Assembly (NCBI GenBank): GCA_017504545.1
Contig: JAFVRA010000074.1
Coordinates: 1 to 41,448, forward strand
Direction of reading: 5' to 3'
Source: Clostridia bacterium
GTDB lineage: Bacteria > Bacillota > Clostridia > Oscillospirales > CAG-272
Length of the DNA: 41,448 nt
In this document: piece by piece, positions 6,820 through 41,448 of the stretch
Layout of the letters: each line of letters begins with the position of its first letter
Numbering within the stretch: the first letter of the stretch is position 1
Position numbers and translations under genes: made by a program
Notes under the pieces: generated by a model
Told to the model about the DNA's origin: nothing
The model's database searches: none
What the model saw: the letters and a program-made list of their open reading frames with translations, nothing else

Positions 6820-6883
6820 CACCAAAATCACAATGTAACGTAGAAAATCAATCCTCGTTTTTGTGCATTATTAACAAAAAACA

Positions 6884-18221: not shown

Positions 18222-18251
18222 TTAAAAAGAAAACCGCCTGCAAGCAGGCGG
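18222..18251 (-). terminator. Rho-independent terminator of the sigma/subtilase module
   Basis: Minus strand reads CCGCCTGC-tt-GCAGGCGG followed by TTTTCTTTTT, ~40 nt after the stop at 18292. Confidence 0.75.
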
Positions 18252-18291
18252 TAATCTAATACTATATCAAGACAATATATAATAAATGTGG

Positions 18292-20364
18292 TTATTCCTT
18301 TTCGCCGTAGTAAAACTCCAAGGTTCCTGCGAGATACGCCTCAACGTCCTCTTCTACCAATACTATAGTGCCGTTGGGAAGAATATAACTGCCGTTGTCT
18401 GTATGAGCAAGTCCCTCGGGAACGCTCTGCAAGGTTCCCATAAACGCACGGCCGCGACACAGCATACAAATAGCGTAGCCGTCAGGACCAACAAAGCCTC
18501 CGGGGGCAACAACGTGAGATGAAGTTACGTACGAATCGCATCTGCAATAAGACTTATGCTTTCCATCCGATTGCCACGTATAGTGATCTGTATATGAATG
18601 ATCGTGTACAACCTTATAAGCAATAGCTCCAAATTCACCCAGATAGCTTTGCGCATCTTCCGCTAAGACAATATCGATTCTAAATGATGAATTGTTTTCA
18701 TTTTGATTAGTGAAAGTCAAATAATCAACGCTTGAATCAACAGTACTCTCCGCAACGTACGTAGATGTTCCTAAATCAAAGATCTTTATTATATAATCAG
18801 TATATTGGGGCTGTGCTGAAGCATTGGGGTTCTGTATTCCTTCAGTAATATTACTGTAATCGCTCACAGAGTTTATAGTTATATTAGCATTTATCATTAT
18901 GGTATCTAAATATGGAATTGTTACTGACTCTTCAAGCACATCCTCCCCTTGACATTCACCATAAATAACAAAATCCGAATGTTCGCCGTTCAGCATACAA
19001 TTTCTCATATTCTGATAATTTATCAATCCAAAACCTGCCTGCTCGTCAAAATAACTTGTCTGAGTAGGAAGCTTTTCGGCGCTCAAGTGTACCAATGACT
19101 TTACTAACTCCGGATTAACTCTAAGACTGGGAAATTCCTCCATCAACAATGCTATTACTCCTGTAACCATAGGTGTAGCTGCACTTGTGCCACCAAAAGT
19201 CCCTTCTATGTTTTCTATGCCGGAAATTTTTCCACCGGGTGCAACAATATCAGGTTTTAATAAGAATTCATTACCTATCTCAACAATTTCCCAATATGAG
19301 CTACTAGATATGTTCTTGTCATAATCTATTGCCCCAACTGTTATAGCATTAAGAGCACAGCCAGGAGAAGTAACACGACTATAGTAATCATATTCACCTT
19401 CAGTTCCTGAAGATTTCACAAATGTGCAACAAGAATTTGAAACTACACTATCAATATAATCATCATATTTTGAGTAATATCCTAAAGGGTCTATCCCACA
19501 ACTCATATTAATAATGTGTACTCCATACGTGTTTATTAGAGTATTGCAAGCTGAAAGTAGACCACTCTCTAAAGGCATACAATATAAATATACATCTTCT
19601 GCTATTCCGGAATTACCACCAATAATAGAAGTTACTTTAGTAGAATGATCCGTTACATTATTTCCCAGAAAAGTATATAACCCTTCTTTTAAATTGACAG
19701 TACTATGCGGACGTCCTTCCTCAATAACACCTACTTTTATTCCGTCTCCGGTAAACTCAGAATCAGCCGCTCCAATATCCTCAATAGCTTCACTAAACGG
19801 ATAGTTAACAGTAGACGTTTCGCTGTTTTGCGTTGCATCATCGGTACCCTGTGTTGTAATAAAGCTACATATAGAGGCAATAATATCTTCATTAGCTTCT
19901 GCTTTACCTACAAGAGAACTCTCATATATCTCATACTCATATACGTCATCGAATATGACCTCAACGTACGGAGCGAAAAAGCTTACGGTGTAATTGCACT
20001 CGTTCAATGACATTTTGTCAACTAACTGTTGGTTATGCTGAAGATAATGTTCTTTTACATTCGCTCTGTGCTGATATAACGCTTCATCAATTTTATCATC
20101 ATCAGCAACAATTCTTGATGCGCTCAGATCAAGCGAAGGATCTTCTCTTGCTTCAACAAGCAAACATATATCGTATTCGTCAGAACTTTCAGCGCTAATT
20201 TCTTGCGCTTCCAGTTTTTTATAGACATCCGATATACTCATTAAATCAATAGAAATTGAAACGCTTTCTTCGGTTGCATCATTAAAAATCGAACCAGTCT
20301 CCTGAAGCGCATAAAAGGGGAAAATACAACATATCGCCAATACTAAACACAAACTCTTAATCAT
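18292..20364 (-). CDS. Secreted S8 subtilase-like protein with non-canonical active-site residues and a Cys-rich C-terminal tail
   Basis: 690 aa. Signal peptide MIKSLCLVLAICCIFPFYA. S8 blocks are GIKVGVIEEG, DHSTKVTSIIGG, IINMSCG, SSGTEG, ITVGAID, DIVAPG and GGTSAATPMVTG. The tail carries C-x-C ... C-x-x-C. Confidence 0.8.
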   Translation of the reverse strand: MIKSLCLVLAICCIFPFYALQETGSIFNDATEESVSISIDLMSISDVYKKLEAQEISAESSDEYDICLLVEAREDPSLDLSASRIVADDDKIDEALYQHRANVKEHYLQHNQQLVDKMSLNECNYTVSFFAPYVEVIFDDVYEYEIYESSLVGKAEANEDIIASICSFITTQGTDDATQNSETSTVNYPFSEAIEDIGAADSEFTGDGIKVGVIEEGRPHSTVNLKEGLYTFLGNNVTDHSTKVTSIIGGNSGIAEDVYLYCMPLESGLLSACNTLINTYGVHIINMSCGIDPLGYYSKYDDYIDSVVSNSCCTFVKSSGTEGEYDYYSRVTSPGCALNAITVGAIDYDKNISSSSYWEIVEIGNEFLLKPDIVAPGGKISGIENIEGTFGGTSAATPMVTGVIALLMEEFPSLRVNPELVKSLVHLSAEKLPTQTSYFDEQAGFGLINYQNMRNCMLNGEHSDFVIYGECQGEDVLEESVTIPYLDTIMINANITINSVSDYSNITEGIQNPNASAQPQYTDYIIKIFDLGTSTYVAESTVDSSVDYLTFTNQNENNSSFRIDIVLAEDAQSYLGEFGAIAYKVVHDHSYTDHYTWQSDGKHKSYCRCDSYVTSSHVVAPGGFVGPDGYAICMLCRGRAFMGTLQSVPEGLAHTDNGSYILPNGTIVLVEEDVEAYLAGTLEFYYGEKE

Positions 20365-20408
20365 CTTTCTTCTCCTTGTTTTTTAATATTTTTAAAATAA
20401 AAATTCAA

Positions 20409-21848
20409 TTACCCCTCGTAAAAACTATAGCTATATATAACCTCTATCCGAGTTACATATTCCAATTCTGCAAAATTCTTGATGACATCATAATCGGCAT
20501 AAAAGTCTGCCAATGCATTTGATAACGGTTCTTCATCCGTGCAATTTTCATCAGCGTGCGAATAAAAGAAGCGTAGATGAGAGATATAATCTCCCAAGCT
20601 AAGGTGTTCATCGGACAGTTCAGAACTGTATTCATTAAAGAAAGCAGTGTTAAGAGTTATAAGTTTGGTGTCCTCACATGCCTTATACCACTCTTCCTCT
20701 GTGGCAAGATCATAATCACAATAAACAAATATTATAATTTTAGCGGGAACCCAGAATTCATCGTTAAGGTTGCTTTTATCACCTTTACTCTCAGCATAAT
20801 GGCGGAATTGACTCCTTTTATAAAAGCCTACTTTGTCTATTGTTTCTTCTTCATTCTCCATAAAATCAAAGAAGTTCTTCAATTCTTCATCCTTAACAAT
20901 AGCGCTTTCAATAACATCTGCAAACCAATCCACTTTAACCATATCAATATAAGATGTGCCATCATCATGCTCGATAGTCTCATAATGATACGAATCTGTT
21001 ACAAGTTGCATGCCGGTATAATAATCTCCGAGTTCCTTATCGTCATAATCTAAAATAAAGCCGTCTGTAAACCTCTTTTGTGATTTTCTCACATAGTAAT
21101 ACTCGCCGTCCAAGTATCTACAAGGAACCGTCACCCACTCGTGATCATACGCCGTGGTGGAGTAATAAACGGCATTTTCCTCGGACGAATTGAGGTAGAT
21201 AAAGGTCTCGTCAAAGGTATCGGCTGCCTTTGTGTTTACGCCCTCGTTAAACTGAGGCTCATAGGGCTGAAAATGCTCCATAGTCGGCACCGCCGCGTCC
21301 TCTGTCATAATGTCCTTGACGAAGAGCGAGGGATTAATTTGAAAGGCTAACGCCATTTGGAGATCTTCGTACTCTTTTGTAATATCGCCGACGTTTGCAT
21401 ATTTGAGCCAAGTGTATTCGCCGCTCTGCTGACCGTCAGCCGAATACGCGCAAACAAAGTAAGGCTTTGAAGGATCAAACGCGACGTGCAGCGCCTGCTG
21501 TCCGTCTCTTATTGCATCCATTTTGTCTGCCGTTGTGATCGCGGGCATATCGTGGTCAACCTCAAGCTCGTTCAAATATTCAACCAAGGCGATAATAAGC
21601 GCATCCTCGGATTTAAGCTCTGTACCGTTATTGACAACAGGCTCTTCAAAGGGCGGAAGTCCCGACCCCGCCGCGAATGCGGTAGTAACGAGCAAGCTCA
21701 GGCACGCTGCTACGACTATCCATTTTATCAAGCCATGCTTATGCGGCTTTCGCAGATTCTTTTTTCCATTTGCACCTTCCGGTGCTGCCGCAAGGACTAC
21801 GTCGGCGTCAATTCCGCCGAGAGCCTCAAAAATATCTTTATTTTTCAT
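20409..21848 (-). CDS. Single-pass membrane protein co-translated with the sigma factor (putative anti-sigma/sensor)
   Basis: 479 aa. ~40-aa cytoplasmic N-terminus (MKNKDIFEALGGIDADVVLAAA), TM LIKWIVVAACLSLLVTTAFAAG, and a large acidic, Tyr-rich ectodomain with no motif I recognise. ATGA overlap with the sigma gene. Confidence 0.6.
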   Translation of the reverse strand: MKNKDIFEALGGIDADVVLAAAPEGANGKKNLRKPHKHGLIKWIVVAACLSLLVTTAFAAGSGLPPFEEPVVNNGTELKSEDALIIALVEYLNELEVDHDMPAITTADKMDAIRDGQQALHVAFDPSKPYFVCAYSADGQQSGEYTWLKYANVGDITKEYEDLQMALAFQINPSLFVKDIMTEDAAVPTMEHFQPYEPQFNEGVNTKAADTFDETFIYLNSSEENAVYYSTTAYDHEWVTVPCRYLDGEYYYVRKSQKRFTDGFILDYDDKELGDYYTGMQLVTDSYHYETIEHDDGTSYIDMVKVDWFADVIESAIVKDEELKNFFDFMENEEETIDKVGFYKRSQFRHYAESKGDKSNLNDEFWVPAKIIIFVYCDYDLATEEEWYKACEDTKLITLNTAFFNEYSSELSDEHLSLGDYISHLRFFYSHADENCTDEEPLSNALADFYADYDVIKNFAELEYVTRIEVIYSYSFYEG

Positions 21849-22399
21849 ACTGTAAACCCTTCCTTCACTAAAAACTCTTTAAGCTTTTCTCGTGTCCGCA
21901 AGAGAAGAACTGCGGCGTTGCTTTCCTTTATCGAAAGCTCGCTCGCGACCTCGGCTATCGTGCATGCGTACCAATAGCGAAGCAAAAACGCCTTCTGCGT
22001 GCGGCTTGGGAGAGAGCGCACGAATCGGTTGAGCGCGTCGCGCAAAAGCAGGCTGTCAACCATTTCCTCTCCCTCTTTTTCGGGAATACACTCTGCAAGC
22101 TCGTCAAGTATAAGTGACACGTTCCCTTCTCTTTTCTGCCTTTTCTGCGCCTTTCTGCGATTCATGGCGATATTTCGGCAGAGCGCGCCGATATAGTGCT
22201 TGAGCGGCTCGGGGCGCTTGGGGGGAATAGTGTTCCAGGCGGCGAGATAGGTGTCGTTCTTTACCTCGAGTGAGTCCTCTTCGTTCTCAAGAATACGGTC
22301 GGCTATGTATTTGCAATAGCGACCGTACTTTTTGTCGGTCTCCTCGATGGCATCCTCAGAGCGTTCCCAAAAGAGATCTAATATTTTACTGTCATCCAT
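21845..22399 (-). CDS. Sigma-70 family (ECF-like) RNA polymerase sigma factor
   Basis: 184 aa. Region 2 is NDTYLAAWNTIPPKRP. Region 4 HTH is AFLLRYWYACTIAEVASELSIKESNAAVLLLRTREKLKEFL. Confidence 0.85.
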   Translation of the reverse strand: MDDSKILDLFWERSEDAIEETDKKYGRYCKYIADRILENEEDSLEVKNDTYLAAWNTIPPKRPEPLKHYIGALCRNIAMNRRKAQKRQKREGNVSLILDELAECIPEKEGEEMVDSLLLRDALNRFVRSLPSRTQKAFLLRYWYACTIAEVASELSIKESNAAVLLLRTREKLKEFLVKEGFTV

Positions 22400-22576
22400 C
22401 TCAAATCTCCTTTCTTTGAAGGTCCTTCACCCTAATAAACAACAAAAATGCCGTCTACATTACACCAAAAATAAAAATTTTTTAAATTTTTTTAATTTTT
22501 TTGCAATTCAATTATACCACCCTCATCCAAGTCTGTCAATCGCGACCAACAAAATAAAAAATATACGCATTGGTAC

Positions 22577-39387: not shown

Positions 39388-40938
39388 ATGGACGGTACCT
39401 TATGGGCTTTCTTGCCGGCGGTCATTGCTATCGTGCTTGCGCTGGTAACGAAGCAGGTTTACGTTTCTCTGTTCTTGGGAATATTCGTCGGCGCGATGAT
39501 GTACGCAGGCGGCAATCCCCTCAACGCGATGTTCACACTCTTCCAGGTAATGAGCGAGAAGGTCGGCTCTAACACCCCGATCATCGTTTTCCTCGTCGTG
39601 CTTGGAATTCTTGTAGTTCTTTTGCAGAAGTCGGGCGGCGCTAAGGCGTACGGCGACTGGGCAGGCAAGAAGATAAAGTCCAAGGGCGGCGCTCTTGCGG
39701 CTACCGCGGCACTCGGTTGCCTTATCTTCGTTGACGACTATTTCAACTGCCTTACAGTCGGCTCTGTAATGCGTCCCGTTACCGATAAGTTCAAGATCTC
39801 GAGAGCAAAGCTCGCTTATATCATCGACTCCACCGCAGCGCCCGTCTGCATCATCGCTCCTATCTCGAGCTGGGCGGCAGCAGTTGCAGGTGAGCTTGAG
39901 GGCGACGGTCTGATGGTATTTATCAGCACCATCCCCTTCAACGTATATGCGATACTCACTCTCATTATGGTATTTGCACTCTGCATCTTTAAGTTTGACT
40001 TCGGCAAGATGAAGAAGAACGAGCTTATCGCAGAGACCACGGGCGATCTCCACGCAGGTGCTGAGGAAAACTCCGAGAGCAGCGCTGAGATAATTGCCAA
40101 CCCCAAGGGTAAGGTACACCACCTCGTTATCCCCGTTATCATTCTTATCATCTGCTGTATCGGCGGAATGCTCTTCACGGGCTTCTTCTACAACTGGGAT
40201 ACAGGCCTTATCGGCTCCGAGCTTCAGTCTGCTAACGTCATCGAGGCGTTCTCCAACTGTGATGCAGGTATGTCGCTCGCTATCGGCTCTACATTCGCGC
40301 TTATCATTATCGCTATCTACTACATGATCGCTCGCGTAGTCTCCTTCAAGGAGATCACGGGAAGCTTCACAGAGGGCTTCAAGGCAATGGTTCCCGCGAT
40401 ACTTATTCTTACTTTCGCATGGTCTATCTCGGGCATTATGGGCGCTAAGGGCGGATACCTTGACGCGCAGTCCTTCGTTGCAGAGAATCTCGCCAACAGC
40501 GCATTCCCGCAGTTCCTCTTCCCTGCTATCTTCTTTGTTCTCGCAGGCGCTATCGCGTTTGCAACAGGAACGTCCTGGGGAACCTTCGGCGTGCTCGTTC
40601 CGATCGCAGTAACCATTCTCGGAAGCAGCGGAACTATGGTTCTTCTCACAGTTTCCGCAACCCTTGGCGGCGCGGTATTCGGCGACCACATTTCTCCCAT
40701 TTCGGACACCACCATTCTCGCCTCTGCGGGCGCTGAGTGCAACCACGTTGACCACGTAAACACCCAGCTACCGTATGCTATGTCGGTAGCCGCAATAGCT
40801 GCGGTCTCCTACGTTATAGCAGGACTTTGCGCGAGCCTCGGCGGCGTTCTCTGCGGCGTGATCATGTGGGCATCTGCTCTCGTTTTCTTCGCAGGATTAG
40901 TCCTCATAGTCAAAATGGCAGGCAAAAAGAAAGCGTAA
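39388..40938 (+). CDS. NhaC-family Na+/H+ antiporter-type transporter (lysine-riboswitch controlled)
   Basis: 516 aa, ~11-12 TM. FVDDYFNCLTVGSVMRP, IIDSTAAPVC and FGDHISPISDTT blocks are typical of the NhaC family. GGAGAG RBS. Confidence 0.8.
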   Translation: MDGTLWAFLPAVIAIVLALVTKQVYVSLFLGIFVGAMMYAGGNPLNAMFTLFQVMSEKVGSNTPIIVFLVVLGILVVLLQKSGGAKAYGDWAGKKIKSKGGALAATAALGCLIFVDDYFNCLTVGSVMRPVTDKFKISRAKLAYIIDSTAAPVCIIAPISSWAAAVAGELEGDGLMVFISTIPFNVYAILTLIMVFALCIFKFDFGKMKKNELIAETTGDLHAGAEENSESSAEIIANPKGKVHHLVIPVIILIICCIGGMLFTGFFYNWDTGLIGSELQSANVIEAFSNCDAGMSLAIGSTFALIIIAIYYMIARVVSFKEITGSFTEGFKAMVPAILILTFAWSISGIMGAKGGYLDAQSFVAENLANSAFPQFLFPAIFFVLAGAIAFATGTSWGTFGVLVPIAVTILGSSGTMVLLTVSATLGGAVFGDHISPISDTTILASAGAECNHVDHVNTQLPYAMSVAAIAAVSYVIAGLCASLGGVLCGVIMWASALVFFAGLVLIVKMAGKKKA

Positions 40939-41017: not shown

Positions 41018-41370
41018 TTTAGGAGACGATATCCTTGGCAGTCCTAAAATTCGTTTGTAGGGGAGGATATTATCCTCCCGCCATTTATAAAAATATCATT
41101 GCGATTTGCACGGGCAGTCGGGGACGCCTGCCCCTACGGGTTTGTGCGCGTTTGATATTTTTGATTGTAGGGACCGACGTCCTCGGCGGTCCTAAAAATC
41201 GGACGTGCAATGCACGCCCCTACGGGTTTAATAGTTGTTCTCATATTTGCCTGTAGGGGAGCATTCAATATGCTCCCGAAGAAGAAAGGGCGGATATGGA
41301 ATCCGCCCCTACGGACAAAACATAAAAATTCGCACCCATTTTGTAGGAGACGCCATCCTTGGCAGTCCCG
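41018..41370. repeat. Cluster of eight REP/BIME-like palindromic units with GTAGG heads in alternating orientation
   Basis: - Forward units start at 41020, 41058, 41167, 41253 and 41343 (t/gTAGG + stem-loop).
- Reverse units end in CCCCTACGG at 41112-41140, 41201-41226 and 41288-41314.
- Example stems: GGGAGGATA/TATCCTCCC, GGGCAG/CTGCCC, GGGAGCAT/ATGCTCCC, GGGCGGAT/ATCCGCCC. Confidence 0.7.
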
Positions 41371-41395
41371 TTTGCTCGGCGTAGTCTTACCAAAA

Positions 41396-41448
41396 GCCTT
41401 CTCCAGTGGGAGAAGGTGCCGAGGAACGAGGCGGATGAGGTGTCATTA
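41396..41448. repeat. Structured four-hairpin intergenic repeat, copy 3 (left arm only, cut by window end)
   Basis: CCTTCTCC-agtg-GGAGAAGG, then tgccgaggaacgaggcgg, then aTGAGGTGTCA. The order parallels the left arms at 15394 and 29872. Confidence 0.5.

Follow-up and report, generated by a model that had tools for sequence, protein, structure and literature searches.

Does a secreted subtilase with two altered active-site residues, encoded directly behind the genes of a sigma factor and a single-pass membrane protein, still act as a protease, and is it functionally tied to that sigma factor? This question is raised by a contig of 41,448 nucleotides (nt) from an uncultured Clostridia bacterium of the gut (Oscillospirales, CAG-272; NCBI assembly GCA_017504545.1, contig JAFVRA010000074.1), which we analysed over its whole length and refer to as the window; its minus strand carries three co-oriented genes in the order sigma factor, membrane protein, S8 subtilase. 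Judging from family alignments and a structure model, the subtilase is most likely a catalytically competent Glu-His-Ser enzyme, and the three genes most likely specify a sigma-controlled, tethered, active subtilase. With medium confidence, we read the architecture as a sigma / anti-sigma / protease operon that arose when a mobile two-gene cassette was captured. The operon comprises:

21845..22399, minus strand: gene of an extracytoplasmic function (ECF) type sigma-70 family sigma factor, 184 amino acids (aa)
20409..21848, minus strand: gene of a single-pass membrane protein, 479 aa
18292..20364, minus strand: gene of an S8 subtilase with signal peptide, 690 aa
18233..18252, minus strand: intrinsic terminator closing the operon, ACCGCCTGC-TTGC-AGGCGGT followed by a T-run

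The ATG of the membrane-protein gene overlaps the sigma stop codon as ATGA, which can be read directly from the sequence at 21848, and a 44-nt AT-rich spacer with an AAGGAG ribosome-binding site, likewise read from the sequence, separates the membrane-protein gene from the S8 gene. No terminator-like site was found on the coding strand between the three genes, and the spacer before the S8 gene holds no promoter-like match; minus-strand promoter matches inside the genes are weak (9/12). The terminator at 18252..18233 has an 8-bp stem, 6 bp of which are GC. With the overlap, the short spacer and a single terminator at the end, the three genes form one operon-like unit, and the layout given in a preliminary description of this DNA (an ATGA overlap, a 690-aa signal-peptide-bearing S8 homolog 44 nt further downstream, then a terminator) is found exactly at those coordinates. 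The sigma factor matches TIGR02937 with 64.4 bits (cut-off 42.9), Sigma70_r4_2 at 5.8e-11 and Sigma70_ECF at 1.6e-5, with a weak match for region 2 (0.014). Being small, containing regions sigma2 and sigma4 and no others, and matching ECF profiles, it falls into the ECF (group 4) class.

The active site and domains of the subtilase

The subtilase matches PF00082 at 2e-24 (86.9 bits against a cut-off of 21.8; residues 206-446, full profile 1-288). Its AlphaFold2 (AF2) model has a predicted local distance difference test score (pLDDT) of 85.5, and its fold matches subtilases with E-values down to 4e-26. The following parts can be assigned:

20305..20364, minus strand: signal peptide, MIKSLCLVLAICCIFPFYA, with an N-terminal helix at residues 2-19 in the AF2 model
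19852..20253, minus strand: propeptide-like domain, residues ~38-171, beta-alpha-beta-beta-alpha-beta, from the AF2 model and a fold match to ProN-Tk-SP (3afg)
18991..19797, minus strand: catalytic domain, residues ~190-458
19720-19722, minus strand: Glu215, codon GAG, at the position of Asp32
19645-19647, minus strand: His240, invariant, the catalytic His
19402-19404, minus strand: Thr321, codon ACT, at the position of Asn155
19183-19185, minus strand: Ser394, at the position of Ser221
18595..18981, minus strand: beta-sandwich domain, residues ~462-590, all-beta in the AF2 model (pLDDT ~85-95), matching Tk-SP (3afg) and KP-43 (1wmd)
18295..18594, minus strand: C-terminal Cys/His tail domain of ~100 aa, residues 591-690

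In a HMMER alignment with subtilisin BPN', E215 stands opposite Asp32, T321 opposite Asn155 and S394 opposite Ser221. For the His block this pairwise alignment is shifted by 3 residues (K243 opposite His64), and an alignment of 61 full-length S8 homologs (A1) was preferred. There, H240 and S394 are both invariant (61/61), as is G392-T393-S394 (GTS), and P398 is conserved; in the AF2 model each of the two stands at a helix N-terminus (H240 in helix 239-248, S394 in helix 393-410) and E215 ends strand 210-215, as a subtilisin triad would require. As an invariant residue at a helix N-terminus, H240 is the correct assignment. All four changes and retentions that had been noted by eye (Asp32 to Glu, His kept, Asn155 to Thr, Ser kept) are borne out by the profile and family alignments and by the model. 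Compared with a canonical S8 active site, the catalytic Asp is thus replaced by Glu215, a conservative variant, and the oxyanion Asn by Thr321.

How unusual are these two residues? Position 215 is Asp in 33 and Glu in 28 of the 61 members, and Glu215 occupies the basal branches of a neighbour-joining tree that needs at least three switches between Asp and Glu; on these sequences, Glu is apparently the common and ancestral acid of this S8 clade. The Glu-type members keep His, Ser and GTS and, with three exceptions (25/28), the oxyanion Asn; a distant S8 homolog of Paracholeplasma is also of the Glu type (VGILEDG, AAAGNFG). Because about half of the clade is Glu-type and retains His, Ser and GTS, Glu is a normal, selected state rather than decay. 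Thr321 is a different matter: Asn321 is found in 58/61 members and Thr in 3/61, only in the window protein and its two closest relatives (P0001-P0003). By this alignment it is a single lineage-specific event, and the codon ACT is one transversion away from AAT. The Asn-to-Thr change probably lowers the rate without abolishing activity.

The protein as a whole departs from 2 of the 83 columns that are at least 90% conserved, which equals the family median. Compared with locus L017, which belongs to the same species, the ratio of nonsynonymous to synonymous substitution rates (dN/dS) amounts to 0.15 over residues 277-460 and to 0.26 over residues 77-276, with a range of 0.12-0.38 across all computable segments; dS is saturated for residues 1-76. 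By these ratios the S8 protein is under purifying selection. The preliminary description had taken Glu and Thr as the marks of a CspC-like pseudo-protease. This view is not supported, considering the frequency of Glu and its repeated exchange with Asp, the invariant His, Ser and GTS, the ordinary number of deviations at conserved columns and the purifying selection. What the data reveal instead is a natural S8 clade whose triad acid alternates between Asp and Glu, which should be useful to enzymology and guards against false 'pseudoenzyme' calls.

The C-x-C ... C-x-x-C pattern that had been noticed in the C-terminal tail is indeed present (C607-x-C609 and C633-x-x-C636) and is invariant together with H603 and H617; it is followed by an NGSYILPNG..VL..ED..AY..GTL.F block, conserved in the form NGSY.LPNG..VL..ED..AY..GTL.F. 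All six Cys/His positions are invariant not only in the 61 family members but also in 136 representatives from other proteins. Searching 1.84 billion representatives, we found the tail domain in 532 proteins at E<=1e-3; in the 150 matches listed, proteins 49-1472 aa long, its position is C-terminal or nearly so, and a Pfam scan of 10 matches revealed BspA-type leucine-rich repeat (LRR; LRR_5) proteins, alpha/beta-hydrolase-LRR proteins and another S8 protein. As judged by these matches, the tail is a widespread domain without Pfam annotation, which may serve as a surface-anchoring, sorting or metal-binding module. What emerges is a widespread but unannotated Cys/His domain at the C-terminus of secreted proteins from gut Firmicutes.

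A mobile cassette and its fusion to an anti-sigma-like protein

The constant neighbour of these subtilases is not a sigma factor. We counted loci of S8 homologs with at least 37% identity and available upstream DNA, which gave ten (the window, L017, L019, L111, L113, L021, L002, L022, L003 and L004), and in 10/10 a gene with a domain of ~150 aa, here called domain B, lies directly upstream of the S8 gene. In eight of them domain B is the body of a lipoprotein of 160-265 aa (signal peptide, lipobox Cys, low-complexity linker) and no sigma gene is adjacent; domain B of the window matches the upstream lipoproteins of L019, L002, L021, L003, L111, L113, L022 and L004 with E-values from 1e-10 to 1e-65 (phmmer/hmmsearch). 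The core unit is a two-gene AT-rich cassette of gut Clostridia and Bacilli/Mollicutes, consisting of lipoprotein B and a secreted pre-pro-subtilase of ~690 aa, and domain B is hereby defined as an uncharacterised, constant partner of these S8 proteases. A metagenome scan with the S8 alignment relied on generic S8 peptide patterns, and nearly everything it yielded was a distant subtilase unrelated to this family; just L031 and L032 could be used.

In the window, domain B is part of the membrane protein:

21669..21848, minus strand: anti-sigma-like N-terminus, with a cytoplasmic motif in residues 1-30, a basic linker and a transmembrane (TM) helix
20904..21626, minus strand: ectodomain module A, residues ~75-315, elsewhere a free-standing lipoprotein of ~300 aa
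20412..20897, minus strand: ectodomain module B (domain B), residues ~318-479, the constant partner of the S8 family

Residues 1-42 form a short cytoplasmic segment, MKNKDIFEALGGIDADVVLAAAPEG followed by the basic linker, and residues 43-60 the TM helix, WIVVAACLSLLVTTAFAA. Proteins P0130-P0164 align with the module A region only, and module A occurs in tandem in P0131; the AF2 model of this module reaches a pLDDT of ~85-93. No Pfam or NCBIfam family matched the 479-aa protein, a search of its AF2 model against the PDB gave no fold match with E<0.001, and a domain B profile found only noise among PDB sequences and Pfam families (best 6xtd_B at E 0.41). Since the fold search had no match, no function can be read from the fold. 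The earlier statement that this protein has no recognisable domain thus holds for the databases, but its ectodomain is a fusion of two recurring modules: domains A and B are fused behind an anti-sigma-like N-terminus and a TM helix. Fused proteins of this kind, 475-481 aa long, make up 19 clusters at 90% identity and have been maintained at two loci whose sigma factors differ.

The N-terminal motif and the TM helix are common to other proteins encoded right after related sigma genes, whose ectodomains are unrelated; carriers include L024 1432-2478 and L019 1265-3196, the latter with a Beta_propel ectodomain. Indeed, several paralogous pairs of this sigma type and a single-pass protein are found (L024 878-2478 and 5414-7431, L019 717-3196), and the single-pass proteins share a ..A...(I/V/L)D.D....A.P motif and an 'AAC' TM helix before ectodomains of the Beta_propel type or of unknown folds. 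These pairs are a family of modular sigma-coupled sensors with a cytoplasmic part too short for a classical anti-sigma domain. Where the accompanying sigma factor is another one (196 aa, 35% identical), the alleles begin with a different N-terminal segment but have almost the same TM helix and module A (P0118/P0127 compared with the window). From this switching of the N-terminus with the sigma type, the behaviour expected of a sigma-binding segment, we infer such a role for it.

The cassette has a GC content of 36-39%, compared with ~41-54% in the flanks of six Clostridia loci, and equals its flanks in low-GC metagenome-assembled genomes of Bacilli/Mollicutes; the window shows its fall in GC at ~21050-21100, within the gene of the membrane protein. 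The flanks of the window and L017 are ~98% identical and their sigma genes 99-100% at the nucleotide level. From ~21170 to 20135 identity falls to 50-70%, and again in blocks within 19534-18215, with 93-99% over the stretch 20134-19535 between them. Among 19 alleles of the membrane protein, residues 81-240 are 90-99% identical, and residues 241-479, which include domain B, are hypervariable with 32-76% pairwise identity. The variable blocks have saturated dS and dN/dS values of 0.12-0.43, which argues for old alleles shuffled by recombination under purifying selection; on the same grounds a diversity-generating or hypermutation origin was judged unlikely. L003 5233-8103 and L029 5001-5984 represent the same locus (LeuRS / Trans_reg_C ... 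dCMP deaminase / AsnA) of two related genomes with the same lipoprotein signal peptide and linker, but domain B and S8 are found in L003 and module A in L029; the final ~50 nt of the S8 gene align with intergenic DNA of the other genome. Since flanks and leader are shared and the cassettes differ, swapping is directly visible here and indicates that the cassette was replaced by recombination. The sharp boundary between conserved and hypervariable DNA within the species of the window and L017 marks their locus as one on which strong ecological selection in gut communities is likely to act.

A repeated intergenic element (..AGCCTTCCCTTGTGAGGGAAGGGGGACCGCTTGCGGTGGATGAGTAG..CTTCTCCCACTGGAGAAGGC..) was seen at the window end (41250-41448), in L017 (10140-10428) and in L024 (7500-8100). 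Two copies follow the S8 terminator in L017, and in the S8-less L024 it follows the membrane-protein gene. The element probably explains contig breaks and may mediate gain or loss of S8. An apparent rearrangement after the S8 gene in L017 (10201-10282 matches the window end) is explained by this element and involves no structural link.

Seven stand-alone cassettes (L019 5060-5225, L002, L003, L021, L029/L030, L111/L112 and L113/L114) possess a conserved leader of ~160 nt directly upstream of the lipoprotein gene. It is absent from the window and takes the place that is held by the sigma and anti-sigma genes in the window lineage. The leader contains a Shine-Dalgarno site, a small open reading frame (ORF) of a fixed length of 31 codons (e.g. 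MNFIQKQQFYLSQNVFRCRFQCERGQLKIVI) and an intrinsic terminator, and in the RNAalifold prediction codons 7-11 of the ORF pair with the 5' arm of the terminator in a helix of 13 bp, for which some compensatory changes are seen. As modelled, it looks like an attenuator; no Rfam family matched it at the gathering score. About 2 kb upstream of the S8 cassette in L002, an ORF starting with MRFFNINLQLFGAGE (1500-2789) has a phage-capsid-like look. Elsewhere in the window, a lysine riboswitch (RF00168; 39142-39308, plus strand, 83.7 bits, E 1e-20) lies upstream of a 516-aa ORF at 39388-40938.

Possible coupling to the sigma factor and competing explanations

Two promoters can be proposed upstream of the sigma gene:

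22511..22539, minus strand: sigma-A-type promoter of consensus sequence, TTGACA-17-(TG)TATAAT
22436..22464, minus strand: candidate autoregulated ECF-type promoter, TGTAAT-N17-TGTTTA, followed by a conserved GGGTGAAGGAC leader

The first matches the consensus at 12/12 positions with an extended -10 (TGgTATAAT) and is conserved in L017 and L026. The second had been suggested as something to look for, and at motif level it is there: the motif stands at the same position before five related sigma genes, those of the window, L017, L026, L024 (position 813) and L019 (position 644). The L019 version, TGTAAC-N17-CGTCTT, is the best of the five and comes near classical ECF promoters, which are of the AAC / CGT type. 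There are three matches in the window, compared with ~0.5 expected by chance; the other two (6834-6861, plus strand, and 30707-30680, minus strand) do not lie upstream of co-oriented genes and were taken as chance. Upstream of the sigma-less cassettes the ECF-type motif was looked for and not found. TGTAAT-N17-TGTTTA is therefore a candidate for autoregulated transcription of the operon. Given co-transcription and this putative promoter, the S8 protease would be at least an output of the sigma factor.

Is the linkage more than a local coincidence? The fused form is found at the CoaE/SLT locus in the window, L017 and L026, and with another sigma factor at the M20/MreB locus in L024 and L025; in L025 the start of an S8 gene is visible and the sigma factor is 35% identical to that of the window. 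The cultured Paracholeplasma vituli 92-19 (L011) has four consecutive genes for a sigma factor, a single-pass protein, a lipoprotein and a Glu-type S8, and L027 has a sigma factor, a single-pass TM protein and a separate module-A lipoprotein gene. The triad proposed earlier is thus conserved to some extent (L017, L025, L011), but most S8 genes have no adjacent sigma gene and their constant neighbour is the lipoprotein. Likewise, the idea of a three-gene extracytoplasmic signalling module gains from the operon-like unit, the family of similar N-termini and the recurrence, but not in its pseudo-protease part, and it does not apply generally. Because the parts have been assembled repeatedly (L025, L011, L027 and the 19 fused clusters), we argue for a functional regulatory link.

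In the mechanism that we propose, transcription of the operon would start at the consensus housekeeping promoter and probably also at the autoregulated ECF-type promoter. The N-terminus of the 479-aa protein would hold the sigma factor, and domain B would bind the cognate S8 as a tether, a chaperone or a propeptide-like inhibitor; its fusion to the anti-sigma would let the state of the protease feed back on sigma. In its simplest version, mature S8 would trim the B/A ectodomain, a site-1 cut that would lead to intramembrane proteolysis and release of sigma. Such feedback through S8 cleavage of the anti-sigma is plausible. A subtilase propeptide normally needs autoprocessing, and propeptides chaperone and inhibit their subtilase and are later degraded by it. 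In L011, the lipoprotein proves to be a homolog of the S8 propeptide (phmmer 7e-4; hhalign probability 83%, P 9e-6), so a membrane-tethered propeptide copy exists in this system. That domain B is itself a relative of the propeptide is a lead from profile comparison; no credible Pfam match was found for the members of its alignment, and Inhibitor_I9 is not among the weak matches listed. One could go further and regard the S8 as the dedicated site-1 protease of its own anti-sigma, with domain B as propeptide-like bait and the co-diversifying B/S8 alleles as specificity groups like the agr/comQXP pherotypes, by which cells would sense their own or discriminate foreign protease; we consider this extension, drawn by analogy, rather improbable.

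Several observations weigh against a sigma-controlled, tethered and active protease. The membrane protein exposes only ~42 residues to the cytoplasm, where neither Pfam nor NCBIfam recognises an anti-sigma domain and the AF2 model has a pLDDT <50 (residues 1-73). The class I anti-sigma domain (ASD), including the zinc-binding ZAS type, is a cytoplasmic domain of ~80-90 aa, a helical bundle often with a zinc motif, and the 479-aa protein has none of this kind. For domain B, PDB fold, PDB sequence and Pfam searches brought up no relative whose function is known, and its similarity to the S8 propeptide profile, although collinear, is weak (hhalign P 0.003-0.008, probability 5-9%; controls P 0.23-0.92). 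Thr at subtilisin N155 costs 2-3 orders of magnitude in the turnover number kcat, and the activity of this allele group could be low. Furthermore, most cassettes of S8 and B have no sigma gene nearby, and L024 (with B in the fused form) and L115 (with B as a lipoprotein) have a terminator behind B and lack an S8 gene. With B genes kept in the absence of S8, the pairing is not obligatory from the B side.

Some of these points would be expected if there were no signalling link at all, that is, if a mobile cassette of B and S8 had recombined by chance into the 3' end of an anti-sigma gene, leaving an ordinary protease for nutrition or surface turnover that is merely co-transcribed and that B anchors or matures, as PrtM does for PrtP. 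The AT-rich cassette does sit in unrelated sigma-less contexts, it has been swapped behind a common lipoprotein leader (B and S8 in L003, module A in L029), the perfect sigma-A promoter could drive the operon constitutively, and L024 lacks S8 at a fused locus that is intact in all other respects. An accident would, however, not be expected to repeat itself: the in-frame fusion of A and B is kept in 19 allele clusters, at two loci and with different sigmas, and Paracholeplasma came by its sigma linkage independently, as did module A in L027. We hold this explanation to be unlikely.

The mosaic variability suggests another possibility, namely a polymorphic effector/immunity-like or specificity-group system, in which S8 would be a secreted, allele-specific protease that acts on neighbouring cells or is sensed from them, B would be its tethered cognate inhibitor, and the fusion of B to the anti-sigma would sense kin or foreign proteases. 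Such a system would fit a locus where sigma (99-100%) and flanks (~98%) are conserved but the distal ectodomain and S8 differ in mosaic blocks of 50-70% identity with saturated dS, where the cassette is AT-rich and horizontally transferred, and where S8 never occurs without B (10/10 loci) while L024 and L115 have B alone, in the manner of orphan immunity genes. On the other hand, we know of no target, export system or killing phenotype, dN/dS stays <0.45 throughout with no sign of positive selection, the inhibitor role of B is putative, and hypervariability could equally result from host-immune or phage pressure on surface proteins. Taken together, an effector/immunity role seems quite unlikely.

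Finally, it is very improbable that the S8 homolog is a dead pseudo-subtilase that serves, like CspC/CspA, as receptor or regulator in a three-component extracytoplasmic module: Glu215 and Thr321 are both real, Thr321 is confined to the sigma-linked allele group (P0001-P0003) and there is weak NCBIfam similarity to CspBA (3e-12, far below cut-off), but Glu goes together with invariant His and Ser and with Asn in 25 members, Ser, His and GTSxAxP are retained without decay at conserved positions, the propeptide is kept, the protein is under purifying selection, and Thr is still able to donate a hydrogen bond.

Comparison with known systems

Our preferred reading is a sigma-controlled, tethered and active subtilase, and the arrangement of its genes recalls well-known pairs. 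As in sigmaW-RsiW/PrsW/RasP, sigmaV-RsiV and sigmaE-RseA/DegS, the sigma gene translationally overlaps the gene of a single-pass protein with a cytoplasmic N-terminus and an extracytoplasmic sensor domain, and the proposed pair of sigma-A and ECF-type promoters ahead of the sigma gene is similar to that of Bacillus subtilis sigM/sigX. Unlike in ECF/RsiW-type pairs, however, the cytoplasmic segment is only ~40 aa long, the ectodomain consists of two novel modules, and a subtilase is part of the operon. To our knowledge, the site-1 proteases of bacteria are PrsW, DegS (S1), signal peptidase and Prc/CtpA, none of them S8; a literature search found neither an S8 site-1 protease described for a bacterial anti-sigma nor a description of this family. 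The proposed cleavage has a mechanistic analogy in the eukaryotic MBTPS1/SKI-1, an S8 subtilase that makes the first luminal cut in the membrane-bound regulator SREBP. The best PDB sequence match of the window S8 is 8uwc (MBTPS1/SKI-1; E 8e-9), which covers the catalytic domain only and reflects generic S8 similarity; the analogy is no sign that the protein belongs to that group.

Among subtilases, the order of N-propeptide, catalytic domain and C-terminal beta-sandwich is that of the active enzymes Tk-SP (3afg) and KP-43 (1wmd), which are also the best fold matches (E 4e-26 and 1e-21); those enzymes, in contrast, have Asp-His-Ser and Asn, no Cys/His tail and no partner lipoprotein. With CspC/CspA of Clostridioides difficile the protein shares the S8 fold, the origin from Clostridia and non-canonical active-site residues. 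CspC/CspA have lost catalytic triad residues, whereas here His and Ser are invariant and Glu is a conservative residue found in about half of an otherwise canonical family; all three triad positions (Glu, His, Ser) are occupied, and the oxyanion Asn-to-Thr change is the sole non-conservative one. A small tethered extracytoplasmic protein encoded beside a large S8 protease is also reminiscent of stand-alone subtilase inhibitors of the propeptide-like I9 type and of S8 proteases with lipoprotein partners (PrtM-PrtP; nisI adjacent to nisP). Here, however, domain B lacks similarity to peptidyl-prolyl isomerases (PPIase) or LanI in the PDB-sequence and Pfam searches, and no lantibiotic genes are nearby.

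A further parallel is provided by sigma factors of the ECF54 group, which have subtilase genes in their conserved context and a predicted regulatory link to them (PMC8999054). That group was proposed to work without an anti-sigma, controlled by degradation of the sigma factor, a regulation that is mainly actinobacterial (PMC8999054); in the present case a membrane-bound anti-sigma-like protein is present and the protease is secreted. The parts of the system are therefore of known kinds (an ECF sigma factor, a single-pass anti-sigma-like protein and an S8 subtilase); what is new is the S8 clade interchanging Asp and Glu, the unannotated partner domain B, its fusion into the anti-sigma and the intraspecific mosaic. 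Should the coupling prove real, no earlier bacterial ECF pathway would have had a subtilase and its tethered partner domain built into the anti-sigma, and the system would serve as a model for the sensing of protease activity at the Gram-positive surface.

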